A stretch of 64,000 bases of DNA from Blasia pusilla (lineage: Eukaryota): contig CM114271.1 in the NCBI GenBank assembly GCA_050084515.1, positions 15,128,001-15,192,000 of the forward strand. The letters run 5' to 3'. Made by a program: the position numbers and the translations under genes. This document shows positions 6,600-57,081 of the stretch, piece by piece. The notes beneath the pieces are model-generated. The model did not search any database, had not been told where the DNA came from, and saw only the letters and a program-made list of their open reading frames with translations. Every line of letters starts with the position of its first letter. Position 1 is the stretch's first letter.

Positions 6600-8800
6600 A
6601 TAATAAAAAATAGAAATTCTTCACATTTATTTTATGAGTTAGTCTAATTTCTTCATACCTTGGACATGTAACAAACACATGCTCTTCATCCTCAATACTC
6701 TCTCCGTCACATAACTTATAGATTCGTTCACTTCTATCAATATTATGTCATCATCCTTCCTCAATTCCTAGTCTATGAGACCCAATTCTATGTCATGCGA
6801 TAATATGACGTAAAAACGTGGAGATCCCCGTAAGAAGGTATCCTTGTTCACAATATACAAGCATAGGATTAACATGAAGTTGATAATATTCTATTTTGGT
6901 GCCTGCACTCCTCCAAATGATGTTGAGAAATTGCTTCTGTAGATGTTCGTGGAGTGTCATCGGTTTTAAGCCCCAATCTCGTTGCACCACATTCCACTTT
7001 GAAGACCAAGTCACCACATCCACAATCCACCCTATGGAACATGTGGCTTACAAAGCTGGATGACGGAGGCGAGAAACATCAAGAGATCTCACCCTTGCGA
7101 TATAAGTGATGGTCAAGTAGAGAACTTCAGCCTCTAGAAGAAGACAACCTGTTTCTGCAAGAAGAATGACATAAGGAGTTTGGTTTCTTACACCCAATTC
7201 TTGTTATAGAAAGATCTTTTGTACCCTCTCCACACGCTCCCAACATGTCTTCTTACTACTAAGGTCCCAAACTTGGGTCCCATATAAGATCATCGGCAAT
7301 ACTAAGCTCATAAATAAGAACTTCTTAAGACCCCATGATATAAGATAAGCTCTTCTACACCGATTTAAAAATGAATATACAACTTTGTAACCAACTTCTA
7401 TTCTCTTTTGCACGCAAAGTATCCAACTATAGTCATGAGAGAAATCAATGTTTATATATTTGTAACTCTTCACTTGTTCTAATTGTAGACTTTTGTAAAA
7501 GAACGAGAACTTGGATCTCGTACCCACTATAATGACTTTAGACTTCTCCATATTAACCTCCATCTGATTCTGGGTACAAAAACTTGCCAAAGTGTCGAGG
7601 TGTTTTTGTAAACTAATGTCATAACGTTCTGATAATATGATATAATCTGCATACAATAGAGCTTTGATGACAAAGTCTCCAAGCTTGACACCTTCACTAT
7701 CATATTCCTCCAACCACTTTTCGATATCATCTATGAAAACTCCAAAGAGTGCAGGGGAGAAGAGGCAACCTTGATAGTACTTAAGATCTCTTGAGTTTGT
7801 GAATCTTTGATCTTGGCTCGAACAGAATGGTACAACGTGGCCACGGCAACAAGGAGATTTGGTGGTACCCCAATGGATTGCAACCTATCCCATAAGAGCT
7901 TACGAGGTATGGTATAAAAAGCTTTGTTGAAATCTATGAAATTGCAAAATAAAGCTTTCCCATTGCCCTTAGATTTCTCCCATAAAACACGTAAGACCAA
8001 GATATGATCGATGGTGTTGTACGTTGGGCGAAAACCAACTTGGACCCGTGCTCTCTTTTAGAAAGACTTTGTCCATACGCTCAACTTTGATTTCACCAAT
8101 TTCCCAAACAGCTTGGCAAAGACACTACCCACCATGATAGTGCAATAGTTTGTCACCAAATCCTTCCTTCTTGATTTGTGAATAGGAACAATCTTCCATA
8201 GCGACCAAGTACAAGGAAAACCATAGATAGTAGCATCATCCAATACTTTGGTGAGGATCGGTCTGATAGAATCTCCTCCCCACTTGAGAAGTTCAACCGA
8301 AAGGCCATCCAAATCCTCGCATTTGCCATTTGCTAATCTTCTTAGTTTAGTCATCACCTCTTCTTCAAAGAATAAGCCTGGTATGCCTCCATAACGTGGC
8401 ATAGATGTAGCATGGGGAAAGAAGTAGAGCTTTTCAATAAAAGATATCAAAGACTTTGAATAAAGAGTAGGTTTTGAAGATTGTACTACTAACCGTCTCT
8501 AGAATGATTTGGGGTCGTCATGGAGTTCCCTTCTTAAGGACTCTTGCTTCCGCTGTAAGAAAGCTCGTTTCTGGGATTTCACCAAGTGTTTGTAAAGGCT
8601 TGTCATGATTAGATGACTTTGGATATCCAAAGATTTGTCTGCTGATCTTAACCTTGCTTGTTTGCATTCAAAGTCAAACCACCCATTACAAGGCAACCTC
8701 CTAGCACTTCTAACCCTGAAAGACTTCATCAACATACCAAATTAGAGGTGCACTATTGAAATTTTAAGACGACCAAACCTCTCAACCGAAGATTTGGACG
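6600..8800 (-). mobile_element. Decayed non-LTR retrotransposon (LINE, RTE-X-like) ORF2: reverse transcriptase plus C-terminal CCHC finger
   Basis: Minus-strand fragments IVPIHKSRRKDLVTNYCTIMVGSVFAKLF, GFRPTYNTIDHI, FIDFNKAFYTIPRKLLWDRL, LLYADYIIL (YADD-like) and LEQVKSYKYINIDF, plus LCDGESIEDEEHVFVTCPRY near 6650-6715. Many stops and frameshifts. Boundaries approximate. Confidence 0.9.
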
Positions 8801-37454: not shown

Positions 37455-40459
<3,005 letters not shown>

Positions 40460-42375
40460 GTGAACCATATTAGCTGTTAATATTATTCTGTGGATCATTC
40501 CACTTTTTATACCAGCGGGAGAAAGTTTTACAACTTATCATTGATAATGAGTGTACTCCACATGAGGCCATGTGAGTGGGGAGGTAGCAGTCATTTTCAG
40601 GGAGAGCTTCTGAGTGACCACCATTGTATGGTAATTTTTCAAAAGCCTTGGGTAAGTGAGAACAATTCTCATCTCTGCCAATCCTAGTGAGGATCAATTT
40701 TGATCGTCTGTTTCAAGCAATGATAGGCTTGATACTAGAGGACAGTGTACCACTCGAGTAATATACGAGGAGCCCTGCAGCTAAACACCACCATTCAGTT
40801 ATGAATGTAAAGCCTTTGAGTAATGTTTGGTGCGGTTTTGTTTTTTTCTCTTACCATGAGTATGCACCCATTTTGGTTAAACCTGTCTGCATGTTTAGTT
40901 AAAGAGCAAATATGGTGACCTAGTGATGCCAGTAGGCCTTGTAGTTTGGCAGGCTTTGTCAGATCATTAATGCTGTGCCATTTCTTACTTCAAGAGGAGA
41001 ATCTGCTTACATGTATTTTCCTTGCACAAATGGATTGCCTTCAGTAATTATTCAGCTTCAATTATGCCGACGCATAGTATAGATCATAGCAATGGTTGTG
41101 GTTCTGTATTCTGTTATTACCTTTTTGCAGAAGTGTGTAGCTTGGATGGATAACAAGTTGATGGTGGGTGGTACTGAGACCAGACAACTACTTTCCAAAA
41201 TGGTTATCTGGATTGGTGCCTGTCTGGTGACAATCACGAAGACAATTTTGGCAAGTGGTTGTCCTGTCTAAGTAATCACAGCAACAATGAAGCGAAAAGA
41301 TGAGAAAGGACTGAAAGTGCGACGGTGTCAACAAGGAAAGATGCCCATCATGGTGTGTAAATTGGGGTTATTCATCTCAGCGTCTCGTTGCCAAGAGTTG
41401 TTGGTTTTAGGTTGACTTGAGGATGAGCTGGGTTTCCAAACAGTTCAAGTAGTGCAAATAGGAAAGGAAGGGTCAATGAGATTTGTAGAAGTACATAGGT
41501 TGACAAAGAAACACATGGGTCAGTTTGGAAATATTGTGAAATCTACTTTCACTCATTGTGAACTAGTGAGATTCCCATCGGGGATAAAATTTGGTAAATT
41601 AATAATGTGTACATACCAAAAAAAATTTGTTACTTCCATTTCATGCAACAATATATACCGGAACTTGTCTATTTTTCTTTCTTGAATGCACAAATGCTCC
41701 CAATCGTAATGTGCATGATATGCGAGTGTAGAATTTGAAGCGGGGCCCCATGTGTCTTTCATGGAGATGCATGCAAGAAGCTGCAATGGATGAGGAGTAT
41801 CACCTCGAAACCAGTAAACAGTAGAGCTTGTTTAGTAGCAACTCTTCGAGCAAGCGGAAAGCTTTATGAAGTAACCAAGAAATGTAGCCTTACTACACGA
41901 CACCTTTTTGTTTAAATTTTCGCAATGACATGAAGACCTTGAATATTCGTTTTGAAGGGGAATGAATGGCCCTACTAAATCTAATTTGCATACCGACACA
42001 ATACAATTGAGTCTACGATGCATTTAAAGATGCCCTCAATCAACACTCCTAAGGAAGATGTGGAGTAAATAATCTTAACGAACCTACTACCACAGGTGAA
42101 AATTTTAAGTTGAAAATTGAAGATACGAAATAAACGCCCTTAAGCTATCACACCTGGCGCACACTGATTCATAAATGTCTACCTTTGTGGGTGATAGGTG
42201 TCGAGGTATATGGTGTTTGAAAACCGAAAAGAGTAGATGGTAGATCGAGGACCATCAACCTCATGAGGGCAAATACAAAAATAGAGTATCCCCATAAATC
42301 AAGGTAGTCTAAGGTCAATTGTGATAGTTTTCTCCGTCTACATCTAGACAATTATTGACTTTAAGTGTTAATTGG

Positions 42376-42680
42376 CGAAGGCCATACTTTGTCCCGGAAT
42401 CGCATTGAAGGCGCCTAGGGTAGCGTCTACCTCGAGCTGGGTCGGGCCTAGGTGTCAGGTTTGGGAGCCCCGGGATGGAGAGGTCGCGACGGAGGGTAAA
42501 GAGGTCACGACGGAGGGTAAAGAGGTCGCGGCGGAAGACATGGAGGACGCGTTCCGGAGACGGACGGATCTAAACGGACGCCGTCCGGAGACGGACGGAT
42601 CTAAACGGACGGCGCTGAACGGACGGGACGGGAGGGTAGGGAGGACGGGGAGGGACGGACAACGTCCGTTCTTTACGGCG
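42376..42680 (+). repeat. Left terminal inverted repeat of the MULE
   Basis: Inverted match to 54860-55098; includes internal short duplications (GAGGGTAAAGAGGTC, CCGGAGACGGACGGATCTAAACGGACG). Confidence 0.9.
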
Positions 42681-42699
42681 TTAGGGCTCTCGCGGCTGG

Positions 42700-43200
42700 C
42701 CGACTCGCGCTCGAGGTTCTCGTTCTTCGTCGACTCGCGCTCGAGGTTCTTCGTGTTCTCGTTCTTCGTCTCTCGTTTGCTCGAGGTTCTTCGTGTTCTT
42801 GTTCTTTGTCTCTCGTTCGCTCGAGGTTCTTCGTGTTCTCGTTCTTCGTCTCGCGCTCGAGGTTCTTCGTGTTCTCGTTCTTCGGGTTCTGTTCTTCGGG
42901 TTCTGTTCTTCGGGTTCTCGTTCTGCTCGTTCTGTTCTTCGTGTTCTCGGGTTCTCGTTCTGCTCGTTCTGCTCGTTCTGTTCTTCGGGTGCTCGTAATC
43001 TTCTTCGTGGTGCTCGTTAATCTTCTTCGTGTTCTTTGTTGTTCTTCAATTGAGCTATTGAGGTTCGTTCGCGTTTCGCTGTTCTATCAATTGAGCTATC
43101 AATTGAGGTTCTCGTTCTAGTCGTTCTTCGTGTTCTCGTTCGTGTTGTTGTCGTGGCTTCCGGGTCTTGTTCTTCATGGCTTCCGGGTCTTGTTCGGAAA
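42700..43200. repeat. Subterminal low-complexity tandem repeats (CTCGAGGTTCTTCGTGTTCTCGTTCTTCGTC- and GTTCTGCTC-type) inside the MULE
   Basis: Directly visible; A-poor and CpG-rich on the + strand. Confidence 0.85.
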
Positions 43201-45738
43201 TCTTTCGCTCCCCTGTGCTCCGCAGCTTTTGCGAGCCTCAGCAGCGCCCTTCCCTCACTTAAGTGAGACCGGGTCTTGTTCTTGACGGCTTCCGCTCACC
43301 TCTGCTCCGCAACTTTCACGAGTCTCAGCTGGTCCTCAGCCAGGACTCGTAGCGTGTATTCCTGAACTAACGACTCCGCCGTTCGGTTCGATCGGGCCAT
43401 GACAGCGCCAGCGTTCGGGTTATATATCGACACATTGTGCGTCTAAAAGGTCACCTCTGCTCGGCGCTCCTTTACTCACGCCTGCTCCATATCTCTGCTG
43501 ACCTCTGCTCGGCTGCTCGGCTGCTCGGCTCTCCTTCACTTACCTCTGGTGAGTGAGTGCTCTCTCCGTTCGCCCACCCCGCCGACTTCTCTCTCTCTGC
43601 TCTTGTTAGGCTTACGTGTGGGCGATTGATTCAAAGTTTACTTATATAGTCCGACCTCTTAAAGTAGGGATTCAACAAAGCTTCGCTCAAACCATAAACT
43701 TGGAACCCTCAATATCTGGAGTGAAGTGCATAAACAGAGAGCAGAAACCCATGAGGTCACAAATTCTGATGGTCTTCATCCTAAAATCCGCTCTTCTTGC
43801 CGGCACTAGAATGAGTGGAATCACATCAGTTTGGCAGAGTTTTGGCATTCGTCAACGTGAACAGTACTACTACTATCTACCAATTTCACATCTATGGACG
43901 ACACTAATGTGTCGAGTTTGCTCCCAGGAGTTTCACCTGCAAGAAAATACACACAGCTTTCCTATCAGCACATAAACCCGAACTTCGCATTAACCCCACA
44001 CTTTGTCGAGCGTAATTCGAAATTGGGCCTTTAGCCCAGTGAAGCTTCGAGCTCCCATGATAGCGTCACATTTCAATTTCCAGCATTCTGGGTAGTGACT
44101 GGGTTACACTTACTTGCAAGACCAACCCCAAGTACTAAGTCGCCAATTCCGAGCGTAATGGAATTTCTTTGTAGTTCTGTCGTTCACTTGCGACCACCGG
44201 AACTATCCATGGACTCCATGGCAACGTGGAGAAAGGCATTGGCCCTGCATTTCCCACGCGTGTGTTACAAAGACTCTGCGCGCCGCCCTGCCGAAGAGCT
44301 ATGTCGAAAATGTTGAGGTAAAACTTGACCTTGTCGGCGGGGGGGTGTCTTTGGGAGCGATCGAAAGACTGATGACATCCACCCCATCTTGGGCCGCCTG
44401 AGAAATTTCAGAAATCCATGACGTTAGATGAATTGTCAAAGGTTGGATGTGTTTGTAGACCACAATGAGCCAGAATCAGGATATTCATGAGTAGTCAAAT
44501 TCTCTCAAGTAAATTGGGATCTTACAAAAACGAGCATGAACGTATCATGGTTGAAGTGCGCGGACTATCAAAGATGTGGAAGCTGCAAATCTACCCTCCC
44601 GTCCCATCCGTCTTCCGTCAGTTCGGCTGTAAGACCATCTATTCCACTTTCGATCACCGGGTACCTGTGCCTTGTACATGTTGAAACAATGAGAATTCAA
44701 TGGGACTCCAGAACAGTTTCACCACATAATTTATGACTCTGAGGTCTGATCTGGATTACCATGTGTTTCATATGAAGTTGACCATTGCTTGCTAGTGTCG
44801 AACTTGTTTGCTTTGGTCTTAGACCCAGTTTCCATACTCTTTTACTAGTTAAATTTGTTGAAGCTCATTGAAGTAATTGTCTTGGTTTCAATGTTCTGAC
44901 AAGGAGGGTTTCCATACAAATTTCCAACACGTAACTATGGGCTTATATATATTTAGGCATGCTGCATCCTTTGTATATGTGGAAGTCACTTGCTTAGTCA
45001 TTCTGATTTGCTAGCAGGTAAATCCGCCCCACCTCAATTGATAGCTTGTACCATGAAAGCGTTCAGTAATTGTGCTAAGCCTTTTTATATTTAGATTGGA
45101 TATAGACAGCATCTTGTGATGGCAAGTGTCATCATGAAATGTTTAAGCTCAATCAGGACTCGTTTGGAAGATAGTGTTGGGTAAAGGTGTAGGCTGCTAT
45201 TAACTTCAAGTCCATTCTTAGGCGTGCTTATGTGTGCGCAGTTGATTAAAAGTTTAGTTATTTAATCGGACATCTAAATCCAAGTGTGTCGGGAGCGAGG
45301 TATAGCTACCACTTTTGTTGTTTTCAATCCAACAGTGGTTGGAAGTTTCTATCCCTCCTGATTATTGTGGGTTGTGGATATGTTTGAGTGTGCTGGGATT
45401 CTACAGGCTTTTGCTCAGAATAAAGGCAAACAGAATTTGCCTAGACATTCTGATGTGCTAGCAGATAAATGATCCTACCATTCTAGCATTAAAGTCACTC
45501 TGATTTGCTAGCAGGAAAACAAATTCGGCAGGTAAATGAGCTACCCTCCCTTCCTTCCATCCGTCAACACGCTTTGCTTTGCTTATGCTCGAGCATCGAG
45601 ACTCGAGAGACGATGGATCTATTCCACGAAACATCATCTCTGGGCAGTATTTTTGTGACATGATTCTTCTTGAATTTTGTCTTATTTCAAGGGTTCTAGA
45701 ATGTTGTTGAATTCTGCTTGTCTCTGATGTTGTGTAGG

Positions 45739-48700
45739 GTTGAAGGTCATCAGTAACATTGCAAATCCGCCATCGACAGTTACGTATTTTGAGGCAGTAG
45801 GGGAGGTAGGTTTAAAGCCACCAAGGATCAACACATTAGGCCCATATCGGGTCAGCCGATGTTTTTACATGCCAAGGGGTTGCGGTTGTTGGGAATTCAG
45901 GTTAACAAACCTGAAAACATTACTGGTCTTCTATCAGGGAACCAGGGCAATCTTCAAACATGGGTCAGCCCCATAGTACATAGCAGTTCTAGTTCAGATT
46001 TGTTTCTAGGGTATATTGTGTGCAAGCGCTTGCATCCTCACTCCATATTGTATTTGGATGAGTGGATTGTCTTAGGGTTTCCGTTGGAAACTTATAAGTG
46101 TCTAGAACAGGCACCGACACATGCTGGATTTAATGTTGCATTCTCACCCAAGGCCCGGTTGGTGGGGGACCATGTATGGTTAGACTCTTACTTCCAGAAG
46201 AAGGGACAGACTGAATTTCTAGTGGTGGAAAACCAGGAGGTAAGATGAATGTTGTCTGAATTAAGGACATTAAACATTTGATGGGGGCATCCAAACAGAA
46301 CATGCTTGCCAAGATTGTTTGTACAATCCGGTTAAAGAGGAGAGTGTCCACCTCTGAGGAGAAGGACCCTGTTCCTTGGGTTATCGGAGTTACTCCTAAA
46401 ACTATCTACCTTATCGACCAGACTGATGTGGATGACAAAGCACTGATTGGGAATGAGCACATTTCAGATTTGTCCAAAATCTTGAGTTCCATGACCCTTC
46501 TGAATTTATCCCGTGTATTCCTCGGAACCTTATTTCTTCTGGAATTGTTTGTTTTACGGAGTTTAGCGTGATTACATTTGCGGTATTTACATGGTACACC
46601 TGAATTCCTCATGCATGTATGTTGTTCCCGTTGGCAAGGCTAACCAATTCGAGTCTTTTGTCGTCTTGTGTTTGGCGGGTAGTTGGGGCTCCTCAAGACC
46701 TTGACCACGTGGGCCATGTTAGGTTTAGGGTAGAAGTAGGTTTTCTTATGTTTGTGTCCTTCACACATTTACATATTTTGGATTCTTTGGGATGTTCATC
46801 TGATTCTTAGTGTGTCTATATGAAGTAGAAATTTGTCAACTTTTCAGATATAGATGACCGGTGACAACCAGAAATCTGCTTTTGGCTAAAGTATTATAGC
46901 CAAAACCAGAATTTTCTGGGATGGAATTTGAGGATATGTATCCTACAAATTTCGGTAGGAGCTTGGGGTATGGATGCGAGAGGAATTATGTATCTACATT
47001 CTAGATACAGAATTCTAGCTTACATTTTTTGCTTTCATTTTTAGAAGTAAGTTTTTAAATTCCATCTTTGCATTCCGACTTTAAATTCTAGCTATGCTTG
47101 TATCTGTTGGTGTGTTTACATGTGAGTGAGAACTCGTTGTGGATACACTCCAGGTTGAAGCCCAACCAGCAAACATGTTTGCTGCATTTAGGGGCAAGAG
47201 TGTAGGTCCTCCAGAGAAACCAGCCGCACAAACCTCTCTTTGGCGGGACCCGGTCGAGTGGGTTCATTATTGCTACTCAAAGGAGCATAAGCAATTCATG
47301 TGCCTGTGCTCCAAGTGCATCGAGTACTTTCGTGGGCCAGAAACTTTTAACTCGCACATTGAATCACATTGGTTGAGGCCGGTGCCTGGAACACCAAGGG
47401 CGAGTGGTAAGAAGAAGGTGGAAGCAGACTATGACCGAGACGACATGGAGGATGAAGATGATGGTAGGGGTGTAGGACTTCTTCTTCTTCATACGCAGTT
47501 AGTGAGATGGTAGCAATGTTTGGTGTATGTGCTCTATGATCCTCAAGACTTCATTCATTTATGTTCCAAAATTGTGCAGGGAACTAGGCTACCCCATCTG
47601 CAGCCAACTTGCGTCTGCGAGGCACCGCAAAGAACGCTGAGCTCATCATGAGAGAAAATAGAAGAAGGCTGTTGTGTTCGAGAAAGCGAAGGAGCATTCG
47701 AAACGGGCAGCGGACCCGTTTGTACCTATGCCCATTTTGCCAGATCTTTTGATTGCTTTTGAGGGCTATAGGGACGAAGAACACGGTCATATCTCATGGG
47801 CAGGTTTAGCTAGGATACACGAGTATGAGAAGGTCCGAGAGGAGCTAGAGGGTGCCCTTGTGTGCCCTATCACCACTTTGTCGAGGGGATGGATTGAGTC
47901 GGCCGCCCGGCTTCTCCTACTACTATCCCTGTAGATAGAGGTCAGCGTTCCACCCATTGGAGATGCATGGCCGCTTTCCATCATCTAGCCGCATGATGTG
48001 GATCATGGACAAACAGAACCGTATCGATGGGATGTTGGAGCCGAAACTAGGCAAAGACATCAGGTTGAAAATTCCTGCATGTTCTAGATGAAATGCGCCG
48101 AGCACAAAGGCATGCATGGTACATCGGTGAGGAGTACTACCTCCCACGCTTCAAGTTTAACTACAAGATCTGGAAAGAGAAGAGTAAACCTAGCATTCTT
48201 GCCAAGTTCGGGGACAAAGTTTCTCGCATGTATGTGGATGGGGTCGGCTGCTCCCTTGCTGATGCGGTTGTCGGGTATAGTCTTTGCTTCATTTCATGCA
48301 AATTTCTCAGTATGAATTGTTGAAGAGTTGTGAGTTCATGATTTCCCATTGTATCCCTTGTGATTCCGCATTGTCTCTAACAACTTGTAGATGTGCGGGG
48401 TGGCTGGATGTGGAAATCATAGATTCCAGTGACTCGACTCGGATGGTACACATCTCCCAAGTCCCCAACCCACCACACATAGTACCGGGCACCATGTGAT
48501 ACAGGAGGAGCAGGCGCCAAGCGAGGGTGGTGAGGAGGGTATTGCGGGAGATCATGTCAACCAGAGTGAGGAGGACACTGTTTTGATTCAGATGCGGAGG
48601 AGACCAGTGACGCTTCGGACACGTAACGTGCGTGGTGAGAAGGTGCAGAAGCGAGGTAAGGGTGCGGTAGGATCTCGGAAATCCCGCCGGCTGAACCCGG

Positions 48701-49925
48701 AAGTTGACATGGAAGTGGGTGAATCTAGCCCGGTCATGGATAGTCATGGGCCAGGTGATGATGAAGGCCCAATTAAAGACTCGCATACCCCCGATGAAGT
48801 GGTCTTGCAGGCGGATCCACAAATCAAGGAAAGAGCACCCAAGGGCATGACTAAAGAAGAAAAAGTCCGAAACAGGAGGATGATGATGGCTTCACAACAA
48901 GTGTCTTGCATTTCGCTCATTTCGCCGATGACATTGTTTTATTGTATGTCTTGGACCATCTCGTAATTGTGCTTGTGTTGATATGTTGTAATGTGTTGAG
49001 AACCTGCAGATGGGACTCGAAGGACCGGGGCACAAGCCATGAAGACCCTTTGGTCTTTTACCTTCACAGGACGGTATTGAAGGGGTTAATCTTTGACCAA
49101 TTTCAGGCCACACCTTTACCCGAGTTCTCAGACTCCAAAGATTGCGGCCTCTAGATGGGATGTCTTCAAGTCCTTGACCACCACGGGTGATCACATTTTG
49201 GTGAGTGTGTAGATGCATCATGCTATTTTCTTGTTATGATTATCCTTTCATCTGGTCCTTGGCATTTAATCTCTCCGACTGTGTGTGAACTTTCATTGCA
49301 GAGAGGTTCTTTGTCATACTTTTTGATGTGTTTCTCGGCGATTATGACGACATACCTTTGGACCACTTGCAGGTAATGTGTCCCTTCTCTCTTTGGTCTT
49401 ACTTTCCCTGGTGTCAATTCTTTACAAATGTGTTGTGTATATGACAGTTACTACTATCTAAACATGCTTCTGTAGCGTATGTGTGTGCAGGTGACTTTCT
49501 GCAGAAATTTTCAAGCATTTTGGCGGGAGTTCATATCATCATATTTTGCGGATGTTTAGGACTTAGTTCATGATCAGGGCGATTCCTTAGAGTAAGTATA
49601 GGAGAGTACCTACCTGGCACGTAGGCTCTGAAGTTCTGTCTTTCTGCTTTGGACAAACCAGAAACGGGCAGATTTCTCTTCTTAATGTATGGCCTTATGG
49701 TTCATGAATCTGAGTAAGTATAGGAGAGTACCTACCTGGCACGTAGGCTCTGAAGTTTTGTCTTTCTGCTTTGGACAAACCAGAAACGGGCAGATTTTTG
49801 TTCTTAATGTATGGCCTTATGGTTCTTCTATTTTGTGCAGGTGCAATGCAGGCCGTTTGGTGTTGTGCTTCTGGGGCACATTTTCCCTTACCATTTTCTG
49901 TGTTATGAAGGTCTATCCAAGAAGG
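45739..49925 (+). pseudogene. Decayed multi-exon cargo/accessory gene of unknown family inside the MULE, convergent with the transposase
   Basis: Coding-like blocks bounded by AG/GT sites: 45739-46239, ~47150-47470 (C2H2-like FMCLCSKCIEYFRGPETFNSHIESHW plus an acidic stretch), 47580-48280, ~48390-48900, 49010-49200, 49300-49372, 49490-49591 and 49841-49925. Interrupted mainly by TAG/TGA stops and frameshifts. The 5' end may extend to ~43600. Confidence 0.5.
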
Positions 49926-51163
49926 TTAGGTTACCTTAGTTGGGCTATAGGTCATGGTCTGCTGAACTATTGTGGATGAAATGGTATGGACCAAAAGGAT
50001 ACCATTGTCAATCAAATTAATCATACAACTTGTAGAGCTATTCTTGATCTTTGTCCCTAAGTTTGTACTCTTGAATGATACCTTAACAAATTCCTCCTTA
50101 CCTTATTCCGATGTGTCTTACATGTTATGAATGATCACATGTGCTTCCACCTGTAATTGGTGGTAAACTTTGTAATCCTGTGAGGATCAATGTTTTGTCC
50201 CACGCTTGTCGATTCCTGAATTTCCAAGAAAGTAAAGCACTCATGTGTAATCACCTCATGAATAGATAGAGTCCATGACACCCTGTTCAAAAATAAAAGA
50301 CAAATGGTGAAACACTCGAGAGCAAATACAAGTTTAGTGATCGAAATGCAAAGGATGACACGAAAAATGTATGAAATGAAATGTGGGTGTTCATTCATGA
50401 ACACCTCAAAGGCTGTGTTTCAAGGGCATTTGCTTCATATATCGGACAATCAATTCTAGCCTTCTTGTTGCGTATCCCCCAGTCGTCAATCCACTGTGAC
50501 AATCTCGGTTAGATACAATTTTAATCAAGCCCTAATTAGGGGAAGGTCACCTCACACCGCTAAATGTTTACGAAGAGGCACGACCCTCAGGGGTAGGGTT
50601 CATGGGCCTTCTGAGGTGTTTTTTTTTTTAGTTACGACTATAGAAGTAGTCAAAACTATATTACAGAAGTTCTCTAAAATTGACACAAGCGTGTGGCGGT
50701 GTGGACATGACCCTAAACGCGAAGCGCACGATGTTGCGGACGTGGTTCGGGTTCAAACATACCTCGTACGTTTACTACATCCATAGAAAACCGATTGTGG
50801 TAATTACTAAGGTTTGGATGCTTGAATATTAATTGAATTGGGTTCGAATACAACTATTACTATACAAAACCGTGAAGACAAGTTACTATGGTTCGCAATA
50901 TGGCCTACACGATGGTTACTATCGTTTGGATGCTTGCTTAAAAACAGAACATGATTGCTCGCCGTACATGAAAATGGGACATGGTGGACATGAACATGAG
51001 AAGGGAACACATTTCTCCTGCGTAAACATCCGGTATATAAAAAATACTTTTTTTTTAACACCACATTTCTTGTGTTGTGTGCTAATATGTGAAATTCCGA
51101 AATGCTTCATGAATCATGAATCTAGGAATCATGTACTACATACAAATTATCGGGTCTTCTTGA

Positions 51164-54100
51164 CTACTCATCCGTTTGACTACCCTCCGCAACATATCGC
51201 TCTTCATCCAACAGACTATCAAGTATGACATCTGCAGTGGTTCTCTTTGTAGTAGTGCTGATTTTGTAGTTCTTATGTGGCCTTGTATCAACCAGAGGCC
51301 ATTTTGATTGTTGAGTATTCTCCTTAGTTGCCTCGCTATCATATTGGCTCACGATAGCGTCCAAATCAAGATGATTACATGCATCTGCTTCCAATTCCGC
51401 CTCCATGTTCTGATATTTTGATCGTTTCACTCTGGGAAAGGACTCCACCTGATTCATTGTTGCTTGGGGTTGATTCTTCCGTGTGGAACGTGTGGAATGT
51501 GAATTCCTTCTCTGATGCATCCGCTCAAACCAACCCATCCGCCGACGCAGCCGACGATCTTGAGAATTGCCTCCAACAAAGGGTTCAGGGAAGTATTGTC
51601 CAATGTTCATTACATTTTTTGGAAGTTCTGTGTTCGTCTCTATCCGCGCCTTCAGGTTCAGAAGTGAGTCCATATCCTTCTGCAAAAAAACATACAAATG
51701 TTCAAGAAGAACACTGCAGAATGGGACTCCAATGGTTGTGGCCAAGAATTTTTCCACCATCTCTCGAACATCTTCCTGAGTTGTTGCTTGTGATACAACT
51801 GTAGGAGTAGTAGCTTGCACCTCTTTTGGATAACCAACACCGTAAGACAAGTCTGATTCCACTGGTGTGTCTCCATGTTGCTCTTGTGCATGCCTTTGCA
51901 CCATGTTTTCCAACCCACCAGCTTTGCTACCAAAACGTGTGCCAAGGAAAGACAACAACTCTACTTCAGAGTGCCCACTCAACAGTAAGCACTTCACCTG
52001 ATACAATTAAAAAAGTCTCAGTAGGCTGCATGTAAAATCCTCGTACATCTAGTGCAGGAATAAGACATACTTAATACATAGGACTGTTTGATTTCAGGTG
52101 GGACTATAGCTTGGTCACCAAATTTGGGGTGCAAGAAACACACCTGATGTTTGCACGTGAATCCTTCATTGGCACGAGAGTATGTACAAGCAACATCTTT
52201 CTTGTCGTAGTCAACCACATCATGCCAATAGTCGGGCTTGGAGCAACTCTTCACCATTGCGCATTTCCTCCCATCTACCAATTGAAATGTGAAATGTGAA
52301 TGACTTTCTGGATTGCCTTGGAAAATCCATTTCAAAAATCCCAAAAGAAATCTTCTATTTCCCCGCATAAGATCTGCACAAGCCATATGAACTTCCTGGT
52401 GGGTTTTGTAGGCACGCTAGAAGTGAGATGCATCTTTAGAGTGTGGTGCCACCTTTCTATCGCGGCATTTGTATCTTGATTGGATCTTGCATGCTTACGA
52501 TAGCCCTTTGCCCAAGTAACAATCTTAGGATGCCAATAGTTTAAATAGTATTTCACAAAGTGACGTTCAGTTGCAGCCCACTTGCGCATGAAACGATACG
52601 AGACATCCACAGGATTTGGGACAGGCAACCATTGCTTAATTAATATGAACCCTACTCCCACAATGGACATAGCTGAGAAACAATGAAACCAACTACTATT
52701 ATTGACTCACATAGAACATACCTTCTTCACGTGAGTACATGATACCAACCAAGTCCCTGTTCATGTCTACTTTTGTAATTGGACAACGGACTCGTTGGTG
52801 CAATTGCTTTAACCAATTCTTCCTGACATGCCATAGACACAGGTCTATGGGAACATCAGGGAAGACTTCTCTGATTGCAGATTGTTCCTCTTTGGAGTCG
52901 TCAACTATGAAGCATGACGGTTTCCAACCGGGGCTACCAACCGACGCAAAATCTCTTGTCATATATGATATGGGCCAATGCATCCACTAGATCCCGATGT
53001 TGATGCCTCTGTAAAATGGCCCATACTAGAGGTAATCCGTTCTGAAACTTGTCAAAACCCAGGAACGTGAATAGCCGAGCATCTGTGAACATAGAAAAGA
53101 GTGTGTTCAGGAATCCGATTGTTCATGTACATATCTATTAAAGTGAACACAACGTTCCAAATGTTACCATTTCTGCCAGATCGTGCAGCAATTTTCAAAT
53201 GATAGCACGGAAGTAATGTAGCCTATAAACTCCTCTAAGAGAATGACATTACAATTCTGAGAATGTTTGAAATTACCTCATATGTGTTTGTACCATGAGT
53301 GGCATCCATGGAGATGGCTCCACCGTTACCAAGATGCAAAAGATTTTGAAGCATCCAAGGTGTAGAAATGACCAGGATGAAAGGTTGGCCTAAACTTGAA
53401 ATGGCCTCCTTGTAGTGTATGACATTTTCAGGATGAGCTGCAACCCAATGTTGGATTGCAGTGGCGTCATCGGTTCCATCATACCCCCCTTCGCGTCTTC
53501 GCATTGAATGCTTGATATTAAGGATGTCTTGTGGTTTTAACATAGCGTCCCTGCCCCAAGCTTGTGCTTGATTAGGATTATCGAGAATGTGTTCACGAAT
53601 CCATCTCCTATGCTCCTTCATGATATTTAAGGGGCTCACGTTCACTCGCAATAACCGTTCAACAAAATCCCTACAATGAGAACTCAACTTCGGGGCAATA
53701 ATAGCATTCGCAATGTCCAAAGTCCTGTCTAAGTCCCCATGGCATATACAGCCCGCCTTATCGACATGCTTGGAATGCATATGCCTCAACATAGAACACC
53801 TAGGGCGGTCCTTTGAGGTTACAACGGCAAAGTGAAATTGGCATCCACGTCCCTGAGACAGCCCAAGCCGTGTACTTTGGCTTTCTGGCCTACTACCCTT
53901 ACCTCCCTTTGCATGAGTTTGAATCAAAAACCTCGCTTGGCAGAGAGGTCCAGACGGTATTCCTATGATCCTGGGGTCCATATGAACACCAGTATCGAAC
54001 TGTAACATGTATGTTCCCTGATTTGTCGGTATTCCTTTTCCTAAATGTGGTCTGGAAATGTGGTCTTTGTTCTTCACCATGAATGAAGTCTTCAACCCTA

Positions 54101-54228
54101 TCAGAGGGAATCCATGCCTCTTTTCTATTGCCATACCAAATCAAATGCTCGCTCAAAAAAGGACCAGGGAGAGGGTTTTGGATGACATTGCATTCAAATG
54201 CAGCTGAATATTTCTTGAATTTCACCAT
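51164..54228 (-). pseudogene. MULE DDE transposase with SWIM finger, At4g13970/At1g60560-like; frameshifted
   Basis: VIQNPLPGPFLSEHLIW..IPSDRVEDFIHGE..RYWCSYGPQDHR; RGCQFHFAV..KHVDKAGCICHGDLD; PFILVISTPWMLQNLLHLG..SMDATHGTN (D1); LFTFLGFDKFQNGLPLVWAI; WKPSCFIVDDS (D2); LCLWHVRKNW (CxxH); DTNAAIERWHHTLK (E); degenerate SWIM CTYSRANEGFTCKHQ. Frameshifts near 53920, 52960 and 52340. Confidence 0.9.
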
Positions 54229-54859
54229 GGCTATAAGTCGTTTCGAGGATTCAAGTCAGGCTCCAATTAAAGTGCAGACTTCAAGTGCAAAGGCTTAAAG
54301 TGTGACTTCTGTCCCATTCGACAGGCAAGACCGGACAAGATACATAAATGGAACCGAACACCAAAATTATAGTGCACATAATAATAGACATGTTTTCCTG
54401 GATTACGATCTAAGCTTTTATGTATCACCATGGCTGAATGTGTGGCACTGATAGCTACTTACGTGCAAATTGGCAAATGATACTCACGGACGCAAACAAT
54501 CTCTTACATGAAAGTTACGGAGTGGACCCCATCCGCCTAATCTGGCTTGAAATCCGCGGTCCGCAGCTAGCAGCAGTTCGACTTAGAACTTATCAAGCTC
54601 GTAATGAAATGCTAATACGCTGATAATCAGCTAATCACGGTCTCTGCTCTTCCTCGTTCCGTGTTTCTCCTCGCGCGCCCTTCGTATTTCTCGGTTCCGG
54701 GTCTTCCGCTCGTAATCAAATGCTAATCTGCTCGTAATCAAATGCTAATCCCTCCGTGTTCGGTTTCTACCGCTCTTCTCCGTTCGTTCCAAAATGATCG
54801 AATCCCCTAATTCCCGCCCTAATACCCGTCGACAAATTCTGTCATTTGAACTGGACCGA

Positions 54860-55098
54860 ACGTAGTACGGACGGACGCCGTCCGTCCGATTAGCGCCGTC
54901 TCGTTTAGATCCGTCCATCTCCGGACGGCGTCCGTCTCCGAACGCTGTCCTCCCTGTCCTCCGTCGCGACCTCTTTACCCTGCGTCGCGACCTCTCCATC
55001 CCGGGGCTCCCGAACCTGAAACCTAGGCCCGACCCAGCTCGAGGTAGACGCTACCCTAGGCCCCTTGAATGCGATTCCGGGACAAAGTATGGGCTTCG
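54860..55098 (-). repeat. Right terminal inverted repeat of the MULE
   Basis: Reverse complement matches 42376-42680. Confidence 0.9.
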
Positions 55099-56192
55099 TT
55101 AATTGGAGGCAAAGTACTCATTAGAAGAATCGTTGTAAGCCACTTTATCAAAACTTGACTAGTGTGTAACAAAGAATTGAATATTTTCTCATTTATGAGG
55201 ATCTTATAAGTTGTTGAGATAATTAAGATCCCGCAATAATGGTATTGTTGGTAAAAATATTTTCTTGATGTTGGAATGTGATGCATTAACGAGGGAGGCT
55301 TTTGAAAATAAAAAGTATAGGCTTTTACGTGCATTCCCATTTGTACTCATTCTTTTAATTAGACCTTGTTTTCATCATCGAGCATGCCAATCTTGGCCTA
55401 TCCCTATTTCTAATGGATTTGGAGCTTCTTGTTCCATTTCCCGACATGCTCACCTAAAATCAATTCCTAAACTTTCAAAGTCCTATCACACTTCACAATA
55501 TTTCTTCGCAAATTTTCATTTTATCTTGCGTTTAGCTATCAAATGCAAATGAAATATAATTTTTTTTAAAAAAATTTCTATTATTATTAGAGAGTTTTAT
55601 TTATTTATTATCCATAAAATTTTTAATTTCAATGATTAGTACGATAGCCGTGAATAAAAATAACTCAAATTTCAAAAGAGATGAAAAAGAAGGCACATGT
55701 CATTCAATTAGATTATAGGAGAGTGTCTTCTTATTTATAAATCATGTTTATAAATTTGAATTTGAAACATGGTTAGTACACTAGTGTTCTTTCATGTCAC
55801 ATCTTCAAAAGGAATTAAAAGAGATCTCTTATTAATTTCTAAACGAGTATGCGGAAACCACATGGAGTGGCCTTTGTTTCCGATTAAGAATGAAACTTCA
55901 AGAAAATAAAATAACTAATGAAGGGGGTTTAAAAACAAATCGTTCTTATGTTCTTTCATCAAAAGCATACGAACATGGAACTTACCGCGCCAAAAAAGAA
56001 AGTGGAATGATTCGAAATGAAGCGAAAGAAGTCGAAGAATGAGGGAGCGGATTTTAAATGGGAAGAGGGTCGAAAATGAGGAGAAACTCGTCCATCCGAT
56101 GACCAAACTAATGGAAGAAGTGGACGCGCAATTCCTTAACGAGTTCCGGAACGACGAGAGAAGTTCCGAGGAATGACAGACGGATGCCCTCC

Positions 56193-56310
56193 GAAATTCG
56201 GAGGAATCACGAGACGAGTTTCCTTTTCTTGATCGGAAGCAAATGCCCTCAGAAATTCGGAGGAATCATGAGTCGAGTTTCCTTTTCTTGATCGGAAGCA
56301 AATGCCCCCC
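56193..56310. repeat. ~59-bp tandem duplication upstream of the quinone oxidoreductase gene
   Basis: GAAATTCGGAGGAATCA(C/T)GAG(A/T)CGAGTTTCCTTTTCTTGATCGGAAGCAAATGCCC occurs twice. Confidence 0.85.
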
Positions 56311-57081
56311 GTGATGTCTCCAGGAATGAAAGCGAAGTTCTGATGAATGATGAGCTGCGAACGAAGACCCTTTCAACGAGTAAAACTGTGTCACATGTCG
56401 ACACAATTTTGACTTGCGCATGCGTGGAAGCACCCGACCTCTCACAAGTTCGTGCGTCAGAGGACGAACAGTTATGGCCTCCCGATCCAAGAATCCACGA
56501 GCCGTACACATCATCTTGAGTAGCGGAGGCAATAGCGGAATCCGGTCGTACAGGAAAGTTACTGAATAAACTAATCACGACGGTCGTGCATAATTGAATC
56601 TGTCCATCTCTCGACCACAGAGGCCGAGGCAGAGGCATCACCTAAGGAAGATGCTCAAAACTTGAAGTTCGTTCACAGCCTTTCTCGTAAGAGGAAGGGG
56701 AATTTCTCTGCATGTCTGGACTTCGATGAACTACTAGTGCGAAGGTACGGAAGCTCTGCATTTTGGAAGTGGTCAGAGGAGGACGAGGAAGAAGAAGAGG
56801 GAGCAGAGATCGCACGCAGACTTGCGCGGGTGGTCACCACCGCACTTGTAGCCGAGCGCATTAGTTGCGTTTGCCACTGTCTGTTGGCGGGGCCTTCATG
56901 CGACGGAGCTTGGGGATCGTGGAAGTCAGGGAGCAGCAGCTGGAGGAGGAAGGTTGAGTTCTATTGCACGGATCGTCAGGCTCGGGGGGCTGCACAATTC
57001 TGGTTCAAGGAGGTGGTATCCAAGGAGGACAGAGCGAGAGCGTCGAGCGCAGGAAGGGCAGAATCAGCGGCAGCCGCAGCG

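Follow-up and report, generated by a model that had tools for sequence, protein, structure and literature searches.

Mutator-like elements (MULEs) such as MuDR, Jittery and Muta1 combine long terminal inverted repeats (TIRs), subterminal repeats and a target-site duplication with a transposase that contains the PF10551 domain, the catalytic residues D-D-CxxH-E and a C-terminal SWIM zinc finger. All these features recur in the element described here, which occupies positions 42376-55098, on the minus strand, of a 64,000-nucleotide stretch of Blasia pusilla DNA (GenBank assembly GCA_050084515.1, contig CM114271.1, positions 15,128,001 to 15,192,000; hereafter the window, the coordinates of which are used throughout). 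The element is very probably a defective copy of an autonomous-type MULE family from a land-plant lineage with an N-terminal module, a lineage that is collateral to the SWIM zinc finger genes of flowering plants and is not their progenitor. Compared with the described MULEs, the target-site duplication is 8 bp long instead of the usual 9-11 bp (although PMC6446971 gives 8 bp for some MULE clades), and the N-terminal module matches neither PF03101 nor PF03108. Outside the family, the lineage comes closest to ZSWIM1/3-like MULEs from algae and animals rather than to MuDR from plants.

The flowering-plant SWIM genes (from Perilla, Salvia, Amborella, Magnolia, Hevea, Pterospermum and Rehmannia) share with the window element the N-terminal blocks, a collinear core of ~600 profile positions and the SWIM finger. 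In contrast to the element, however, their products contain arginine in place of the CxxH histidine and lack the C-terminal tail that is common to the window and the Riccia elements, and the genes themselves fall into small clusters and yield a tree resembling the species tree. Conversely, the TIRs, the duplication and membership in a multi-copy family distinguish the window element from a low-copy host gene. The same concept, a transposase-derived protein with a zinc-binding N-terminal module, a MULE core and a SWIM finger, applies to FAR1/FHY3 (FRS) and MUSTANG, the recognized host families of MULE origin in flowering plants, but the window lineage shows no match to the FAR1 domain and reaches liverworts, ferns and conifers. 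At1g60560 and At4g13970, which presumably belong to the flowering-plant SWIM clade given the annotation string of the Perilla proteins, appear in two papers, each of which merely lists one of the loci. The literature searches found no paper that calls these loci or the family transposase-derived, and prior recognition is possible. According to the available text of PMC4948706, the novel recruited genes of Hoen and Bureau (2015) are not close to MUG or FRS, and MUGA is reported in flowering plants only.

Termini and copies of the element

The element is 12,723 bp long, and its orientation is set by its transposase gene. The inverted-repeat arms, 42370-42525 and 54949-55104, are 156 nt in length and 92% complementary; the outermost 6 bases of each arm are part of the flanking duplication, which is itself partly palindromic. 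The left TIR (42376-42525, plus strand, ~150 nt ungapped, with weaker similarity on to ~42607) and the right TIR (54949-55098, minus strand) are delimited by the alignment of the arms and by loose ends of reads at 42376 and 55098, respectively. Counted without gaps from these tips, there are 3, 5, 7 and 11 mismatches in the outer 50, 100, 138 and 150 bases. The exact 8-bp target-site duplication, TTAATTGG, lies directly outside both tips, its left copy at 42368-42375 and its right copy at 55099-55106; an 8-base match at fixed positions has a chance of ~1.8e-5 at the base composition of the window. The length of the element, the 7 mismatches in the outer 138 bp and the exact duplication on both sides, all given by an earlier reading of the same DNA from sequence alone (the original prediction), were obtained again on this recount. 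In the window, a TIR word of 25 bases is found twice, once at each end of the element, compared with an expectation of 0. Repeat scans of the element identify G+C-rich subterminal tandem repeats with periods of 14-43 nt (42479-43145) and no second TIR pair or duplication inside the element.

Public reads filed under the same species label were mapped on 41000-56500, with ~1/100 of each whole-genome run being read. Mean depth in the four flank bins was ~0.65 in read set X9 and ~0.8 in read set X10, as against ~51 and ~53, respectively, in the 18 interior bins (45653-54958), which gives an interior-to-flank ratio of ~60-80 that is uncertain ~2-fold owing to the low flank depth. Among the 3702 mapped X9 reads, 2029 are at least 95% alike (230 at 99% or more and 1799 at 95-99%). 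Reads end loosely exactly at 42376 (16 in X9) and at 55098 (16 in X9 and 18 in X10), and the consensus of these loose ends reaches an agreement of just 0.41-0.44 at both tips, which indicates many different flanks, that is, copies at many sites. Thus, the element is one copy of a multi-copy family with tens of copies in the genome that are little diverged among themselves, in line with the recently mobile lineage of the original prediction; the depth ratio and the varied flanks at both tips come from the reads, not from an assembly. The left junction is spanned by a contig from another sample (X1; 41984-42447) with one letter changed. No read joint skipping 42376-55098 is listed, which is uninformative on an empty site at a flank depth below 1x. 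Inside the element, 47627-48074 has loose ends on both sides (agreement 0.86-0.98), and most other copies carry a different sequence there.

The transposase gene

The remnant of the transposase gene extends on the minus strand from an ATG at 54228-54226 to a stop codon at 51166-51164 (51164-54228), with ~860 codons readable in seven pieces. Homologous proteins match this strand as seven collinear pieces, from 54198 to 51368 in frames -2, -3, -1, -2, -3, -2 and -1, which span the full length of the Riccia proteins. PF10551 (MULE) is the sole Pfam family above its cut-off (52699-52986, E 9.6e-08; score 32.8 bits, cut-off 27.6). The minus-strand translations contain the motifs MDATHG (D), IVDDS (D), CLWH (CxxH) and IERWH (E), all four of which had been named in the original prediction and align with the corresponding motifs of the relatives, along with the N-terminal blocks that were listed there.

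At three of the frame changes lie GT...AG intervals, which are likely introns. The first of these (53083-53276, 194 nt) comes right after the codons for MDATHGTNTYE and corresponds to a gap between homologue matches; the third (51998-52143, 146 nt), identified from the sequence and the homologue matches, lies within the SWIM finger after CKHQ; and between them is a putative, unconfirmed intron of 49 nt (52673-52721) that was read by eye and the splicing of which would keep the frame. Introns do not account for all the changes, so that the copy is indeed frameshifted as originally proposed. The first lesion is a one-base shift near 53910, and the second is a surplus of two bases at the 5' end of exon 2 (53082-53081), where other copies are shorter (loose-end consensus with 0.97 agreement, 14 reads, X10). 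A further shift is found near 52950. The fourth lesion (52296-52341) is a deletion or rearrangement accompanied by an in-frame stop at 52334-52332 and by read joints or loose ends at 52296, 52320 and 52330; in most other copies, at least 34 more bases are present at 52296, as seen from 12 joint reads and 28 loose ends of X9 and from an X2 contig. In addition, the SWIM finger of the window copy reads C-x-Y compared to C-x-C in the relatives, a Cys-to-Tyr replacement. With four frame-breaking lesions, the window copy cannot encode a working enzyme, and the uninterrupted transposase frame that an autonomous element needs is absent from it.

Protein relatives

Word-indexed protein searches retrieve solely proteins of Riccia sorocarpa, with 42-43% identity, and yield no match when limited to near lengths. 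The flowering-plant relatives surfaced only in a full HMMER search, which was run with a profile of five Riccia proteins and four window pieces and identified 3178 proteins at E<=0.001, of which 934 reach E<=1e-10 and 110 reach E<=1e-30. The best 150 matches were listed, and names were looked up for 30 of these: eight proteins from Riccia, one from Calypogeia, two from Adiantum, one each from Cryptomeria and Taxus, six from flowering plants (Perilla, Amborella, Magnolia, Hevea, Pterospermum and Rehmannia, with E from 1e-55 to 1e-76), one without a name and ten weaker matches. No FAR1, FRS, MUSTANG or MuDR protein is found among these 30 names. The Perilla proteins are annotated as "SWIM zinc finger family protein" and the other flowering-plant members are uncharacterised.

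In five of the six flowering-plant proteins, the alignment with the profile starts at position 9-10 and extends to ~611-616. By contrast, the ten weaker matches (E from 1e-26 to 1e-32; an Ostreococcus-like alga, a scale insect, a beetle, a sponge and six without names) begin just at position ~180-240, so that the N-terminal ~200 residues define the lineage. All nine of the weaker matches that were scanned against Pfam (P0104 was left out) contain PF10551, in combination with Ulp1 protease domains in four cases, C2H2-type fingers in four and PHD fingers in two. In BLASTP comparisons, the window pieces show 38-45% identity to the Riccia set, the closest among the listed matches and a liverwort, and 29-33% identity over ~415-447 residues to the flowering-plant set. 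The N-terminal blocks that the original prediction had recognized as common to the element and plant SWIM zinc finger proteins are visible in the alignment (A5) of both the Riccia/window group and the flowering-plant group.

PF10551 is matched in 19 of 36 relatives. The N-terminal domains PF03101 (FAR1) and PF03108 (MuDR DNA-binding) have no match in the window pieces, in any of 36 family members at E<=0.01 or in any of 10 relatives at E<=1. In the flowering-plant proteins, the matches to the MULE and ZSWIM1/3 families stay below the Pfam cut-offs, which may explain why these proteins are annotated as mere SWIM proteins. An Atlas search started with the N-terminal piece detects eukaryotic clusters in which a minority of members carry ZSWIM1/3 or FAR1 labels and provides a lead only; a sequence search against solved structures gave a MAT1 match at chance level and nothing else.

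The flowering-plant proteins form clusters of 1-7 members, each from one species or from close relatives. A Taxus chinensis protein, P0034, belongs to a 90%-identity cluster of 18 members that are encoded on several chromosome-scale contigs, and its alignment row lacks the region of the second D and CxxH, which suggests a multiplied but defective form in this conifer.

Phylogeny

The trees were built from 48 hand-picked rows and 717 columns. The rows comprise 34 family members with adequate coverage, the pieces of the window, linked by X wherever they break, and 13 MULEs as the outgroup; FAR1, MuDR and MUSTANG sequences are not among them. IQ-TREE (quick search, LG+C20) and FastTree were used, both quick methods, run with no bootstraps. 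Both recover the same two clades with a support of 99 each. Clade I consists of the window, 10 Riccia rows, Calypogeia and one further row, and within it the window is the sister to six Riccia proteins (support 98). In clade II, the Riccia proteins P0017 and P0074 together with Adiantum and one further row are followed by Cryptomeria, Taxus and the flowering plants. Amborella is the sister to two flowering-plant subclades, one of the Perilla/Salvia type (Perilla type ~717 aa) and the other of the Magnolia/Hevea/Pterospermum/Rehmannia type (Hevea type ~935 aa), each with several orders and short branches. Two long rows, P0021 and P0050, are unplaced.

The window is accordingly not inside the flowering-plant clade but in its sister clade, with liverwort elements, and the conifer and fern proteins as well as two Riccia proteins are nearer to the flowering-plant genes than the window lineage is. 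The original prediction that the element comes from a lineage related to the ancestor of the host genes is borne out, for the flowering-plant genes compared here, with respect to the shared lineage, and has to be amended in that the element is not the nearest relative of these genes.

Catalytic residues of the flowering-plant proteins

The catalytic acidic residues are largely retained in the flowering-plant rows: all 11 rows have the first D, the 10 rows without a gap at the second D have that residue, and the E is found in 9 of 10, with proline in Amborella and, again, one gapped row. The C-x-x-H motif is intact in the window and in most rows of its own clade, whereas arginine replaces the histidine in all 10 flowering-plant rows that could be compared, and the cysteine is serine in seven rows and cysteine in three. 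For these flowering-plant homologues, the pattern agrees with the statement in the original prediction that the element retains a CxxH motif which is altered in the host genes. Among the other members of clade II, P0017 from Riccia sorocarpa has serine and tyrosine in place of the cysteine and histidine, respectively, and may be an old host-gene copy from outside the seed plants; the Cryptomeria row has lost the first D and the E. The proteins of the flowering-plant clade look like the products of host genes that descend from a transposase of this kind.

Taken alone, the element is a defective DNA transposon of an ordinary kind; its value is comparative. Poorly characterised genes of flowering plants have mobile, catalytically complete relatives in living plants, and one conserved position, the CxxH histidine, separates the host-like proteins from the mobile forms, while D, D and E are kept. 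This comparison offers a starting point for dating the recruitment, for finding the target of the N-terminal module and for establishing which activities were lost or kept.

Structural models and a possible mechanism

The model of the relative P0008 (mean predicted local distance difference test score, pLDDT, 73.4) is similar to the IS256-family transposase of ISCth4 (E 1.2e-4, probability 1.00) and to Hermes (E 1.2e-3), which would fit a DDE core of the RNase H-like type that carries a helical insertion. The two lead the fold matches of the modelled catalytic region, with a sequence identity of just 12-16%; ISCth4 is bacterial and Hermes comes from an insect, and the end structures of both differ from those of the window element.

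For the N-terminal fragment P0028 (mean pLDDT 76.5), the beta-sheet part (residues 46-176) weakly matches the Aft2-DNA structure (Z 5.8, root mean square deviation 2.7, 73 residues) and WRKY33 (Z 4.5), and the alignment of the N-terminal module shows conserved C, C, H, C and H columns. Residues 193-264 match the helix-turn-helix modules of SETMAR, Mos1, Tc3 and ISCth4 with Z of 5.1-6.0, the top row being a phage small terminase (Z 6.8). A Foldseek search with the N-terminal model of P0028 finds nothing at E<=0.001; its best rows are NAC and WRKY18 domains (probability 0.82 and E 0.35 for WRKY18). The fold of Aft2 is of the WRKY-GCM1 type. MULE transposases carry DNA-binding domains with such a fold according to the available part of PMC1702500, and the accessible text of PMC5499845 describes cutting by Muta1 that leaves the hairpin on the flanking DNA and involves DDE plus a conserved W.

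On the model of MULEs that have been characterised, an intact member of the family would make a transposase of ~860-940 residues. The N-terminal zinc-binding beta-sheet module, possibly of the WRKY-GCM1 type, and the helix-turn-helix module are predicted to bind the long TIRs and the subterminal repeats; the RNase H-like DDE core with CxxH, if it acts as in Muta1, would excise the element and insert it into a target site that is cut with an offset of 8 bp; and the predicted SWIM finger would follow C-terminal to the core. On this explanation, the window copy inserted ~2.2 kb downstream of an enolase gene, duplicating TTAATTGG, and gained the four frame-breaking lesions and the Cys-to-Tyr change in the SWIM finger after insertion. 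It would now be mobile only if another copy supplied the enzyme.

Weighing of the alternatives

Several points weigh against the interpretation of the element as a defective copy of an autonomous-type family that is collateral to flowering-plant host genes. The host-gene status of the flowering-plant clade is drawn solely from the shape of the tree, the small clusters and the fixed His-to-Arg replacement, the tree rows were picked by hand among the best 150 listed matches, and the branch that joins both clades relative to the outgroup is weak (14 in IQ-TREE, 91 in FastTree). No intact copy was seen in the window and the read data. The duplication of 8 bp is shorter than is usual for plant MULEs. 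All the N-terminal fold matches have Z below 8 and may reflect merely a common arrangement. The copy number rests on a flank depth below 1x, and X9 and X10, being of equal size, may be one data set filed twice. Finally, the left 3.3 kb (42376-45652) is covered 4-17x compared to 33-83x further to the right, with a sharp step at ~45.65 kb, so that most copies of the family may lack this arm or differ in it.

The step in depth, together with a contig joint that skips 43829-44619, could mean a composite unit in which the left 3.3 kb (42.4-45.65 kb) is a subfamily-specific module or a later insertion and does not belong to the structure that the family has in common. Against this stand the equal numbers of junction reads at both tips (16 and 16 in X9) and the lack of any internal TIR pair or duplication found in the element; a composite origin is a possibility that we consider less likely than a single unit, and it is compatible with the explanation of the element as a defective MULE copy.

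How old the recruitment might be is a separate question. Because clade II spans a liverwort, a fern, conifers and flowering plants, and because P0017 lacks the cysteine and the histidine of CxxH, one may speculate that the flowering-plant SWIM genes are the tip of a host lineage that was recruited from the MULE clade before the seed plants, perhaps in early land plants. They would then be a third host family of MULE origin that predates FRS and MUSTANG, with a mobile sister lineage that is still multiplying in a non-seed plant. We put this forward tentatively.

It is unlikely that the flowering-plant SWIM proteins are themselves low-copy or decaying transposon copies, with no domestication involved. 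Such a view would accommodate the 18-member cluster of Taxus, which is spread over several contigs, and the loss of the first D and the E in Cryptomeria, but hardly the order within the flowering-plant clade, where Amborella is the sister to two multi-order subclades with short branches. The clusters of 1-7 members from one species or close relatives and the fixation of the His-to-Arg replacement (10 of 10) also speak against it, as does a positional counterpart of At4g13970 that is listed for Brassica rapa in the available portion of PMC6265505.

Direct descent, with the flowering-plant SWIM genes recruited from the window's own family, would account for the N-terminal blocks and the collinear core that both have in common and for the retention in the window of the CxxH motif that is lost in the host-like proteins. 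In both trees, however, the flowering plants are located within clade II (with Taxus, Cryptomeria, Adiantum and two Riccia proteins) and the window in clade I, each with a support of 99, and we regard this scenario as quite improbable.

There is very little probability that the element is an ordinary MULE of the FAR1/Jittery or MuDR type, with a likeness to the SWIM genes limited to the general MULE core. The order of domains, with a zinc module at the N-terminus, the MULE core in the middle and the SWIM finger at the C-terminus, is that of MULEs in general, PMC6446971 lists an 8-bp duplication for the Jittery subgroup, and the Atlas search includes FAR1-like clusters at 0.87-0.89. Nevertheless, the flowering-plant proteins align over the N-terminal module that the next-best families, from a green alga, insects and a sponge, do not cover; the names that were looked up contain no member of the FAR1, FRS, MUSTANG or MuDR families; and PF03101 and PF03108 are matched in none of the proteins scanned. 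A placement with FAR1, MuDR or MUSTANG is excluded only indirectly, through the ranking of the search results and these missing Pfam matches.

The 8-bp duplication also prompted a hAT reading, which is ruled out by the MULE domain and the long TIRs. SAME1 of Brassica napus, likewise MULE-derived and published in 2026, was set aside as Brassicaceae-specific and different in layout, as described in the available text of PMC13110187.

Other features of the element and the window

The high-copy part of the element contains a 127-codon open frame (47130-47513, plus strand) that is directed opposite to the transposase gene and includes the pattern C-x2-C-x12-H-x3-H. It has no Pfam match, and an Atlas lead to BED/C2H2 fingers (0.88) remains under the 0.9 line; this frame is a possible second gene of the element. 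Pfam searches with 19 other open frames of the element detect nothing, and the fetched proteins do not match the window outside 51257-54264. A scan for bacterial promoters and terminators, which does not apply to eukaryotic DNA, also gave nothing. At 49590-49825, a 122-bp unit is present as a tandem duplicate with 97% identity.

Elsewhere in the window, a fragment of a reverse transcriptase (RVT_1, 7204-7884, minus strand, E 5.1e-10) points to a retroelement remnant. Pieces of an enolase gene are found at 37455-40080 on the plus strand (Enolase_N with E 1.7e-31 and Enolase_C with E up to 3.1e-42), and this gene ends ~2.2 kb upstream of the insertion. Some of the pieces overlap in different frames, so that the enolase gene may be interrupted or may contain short introns.

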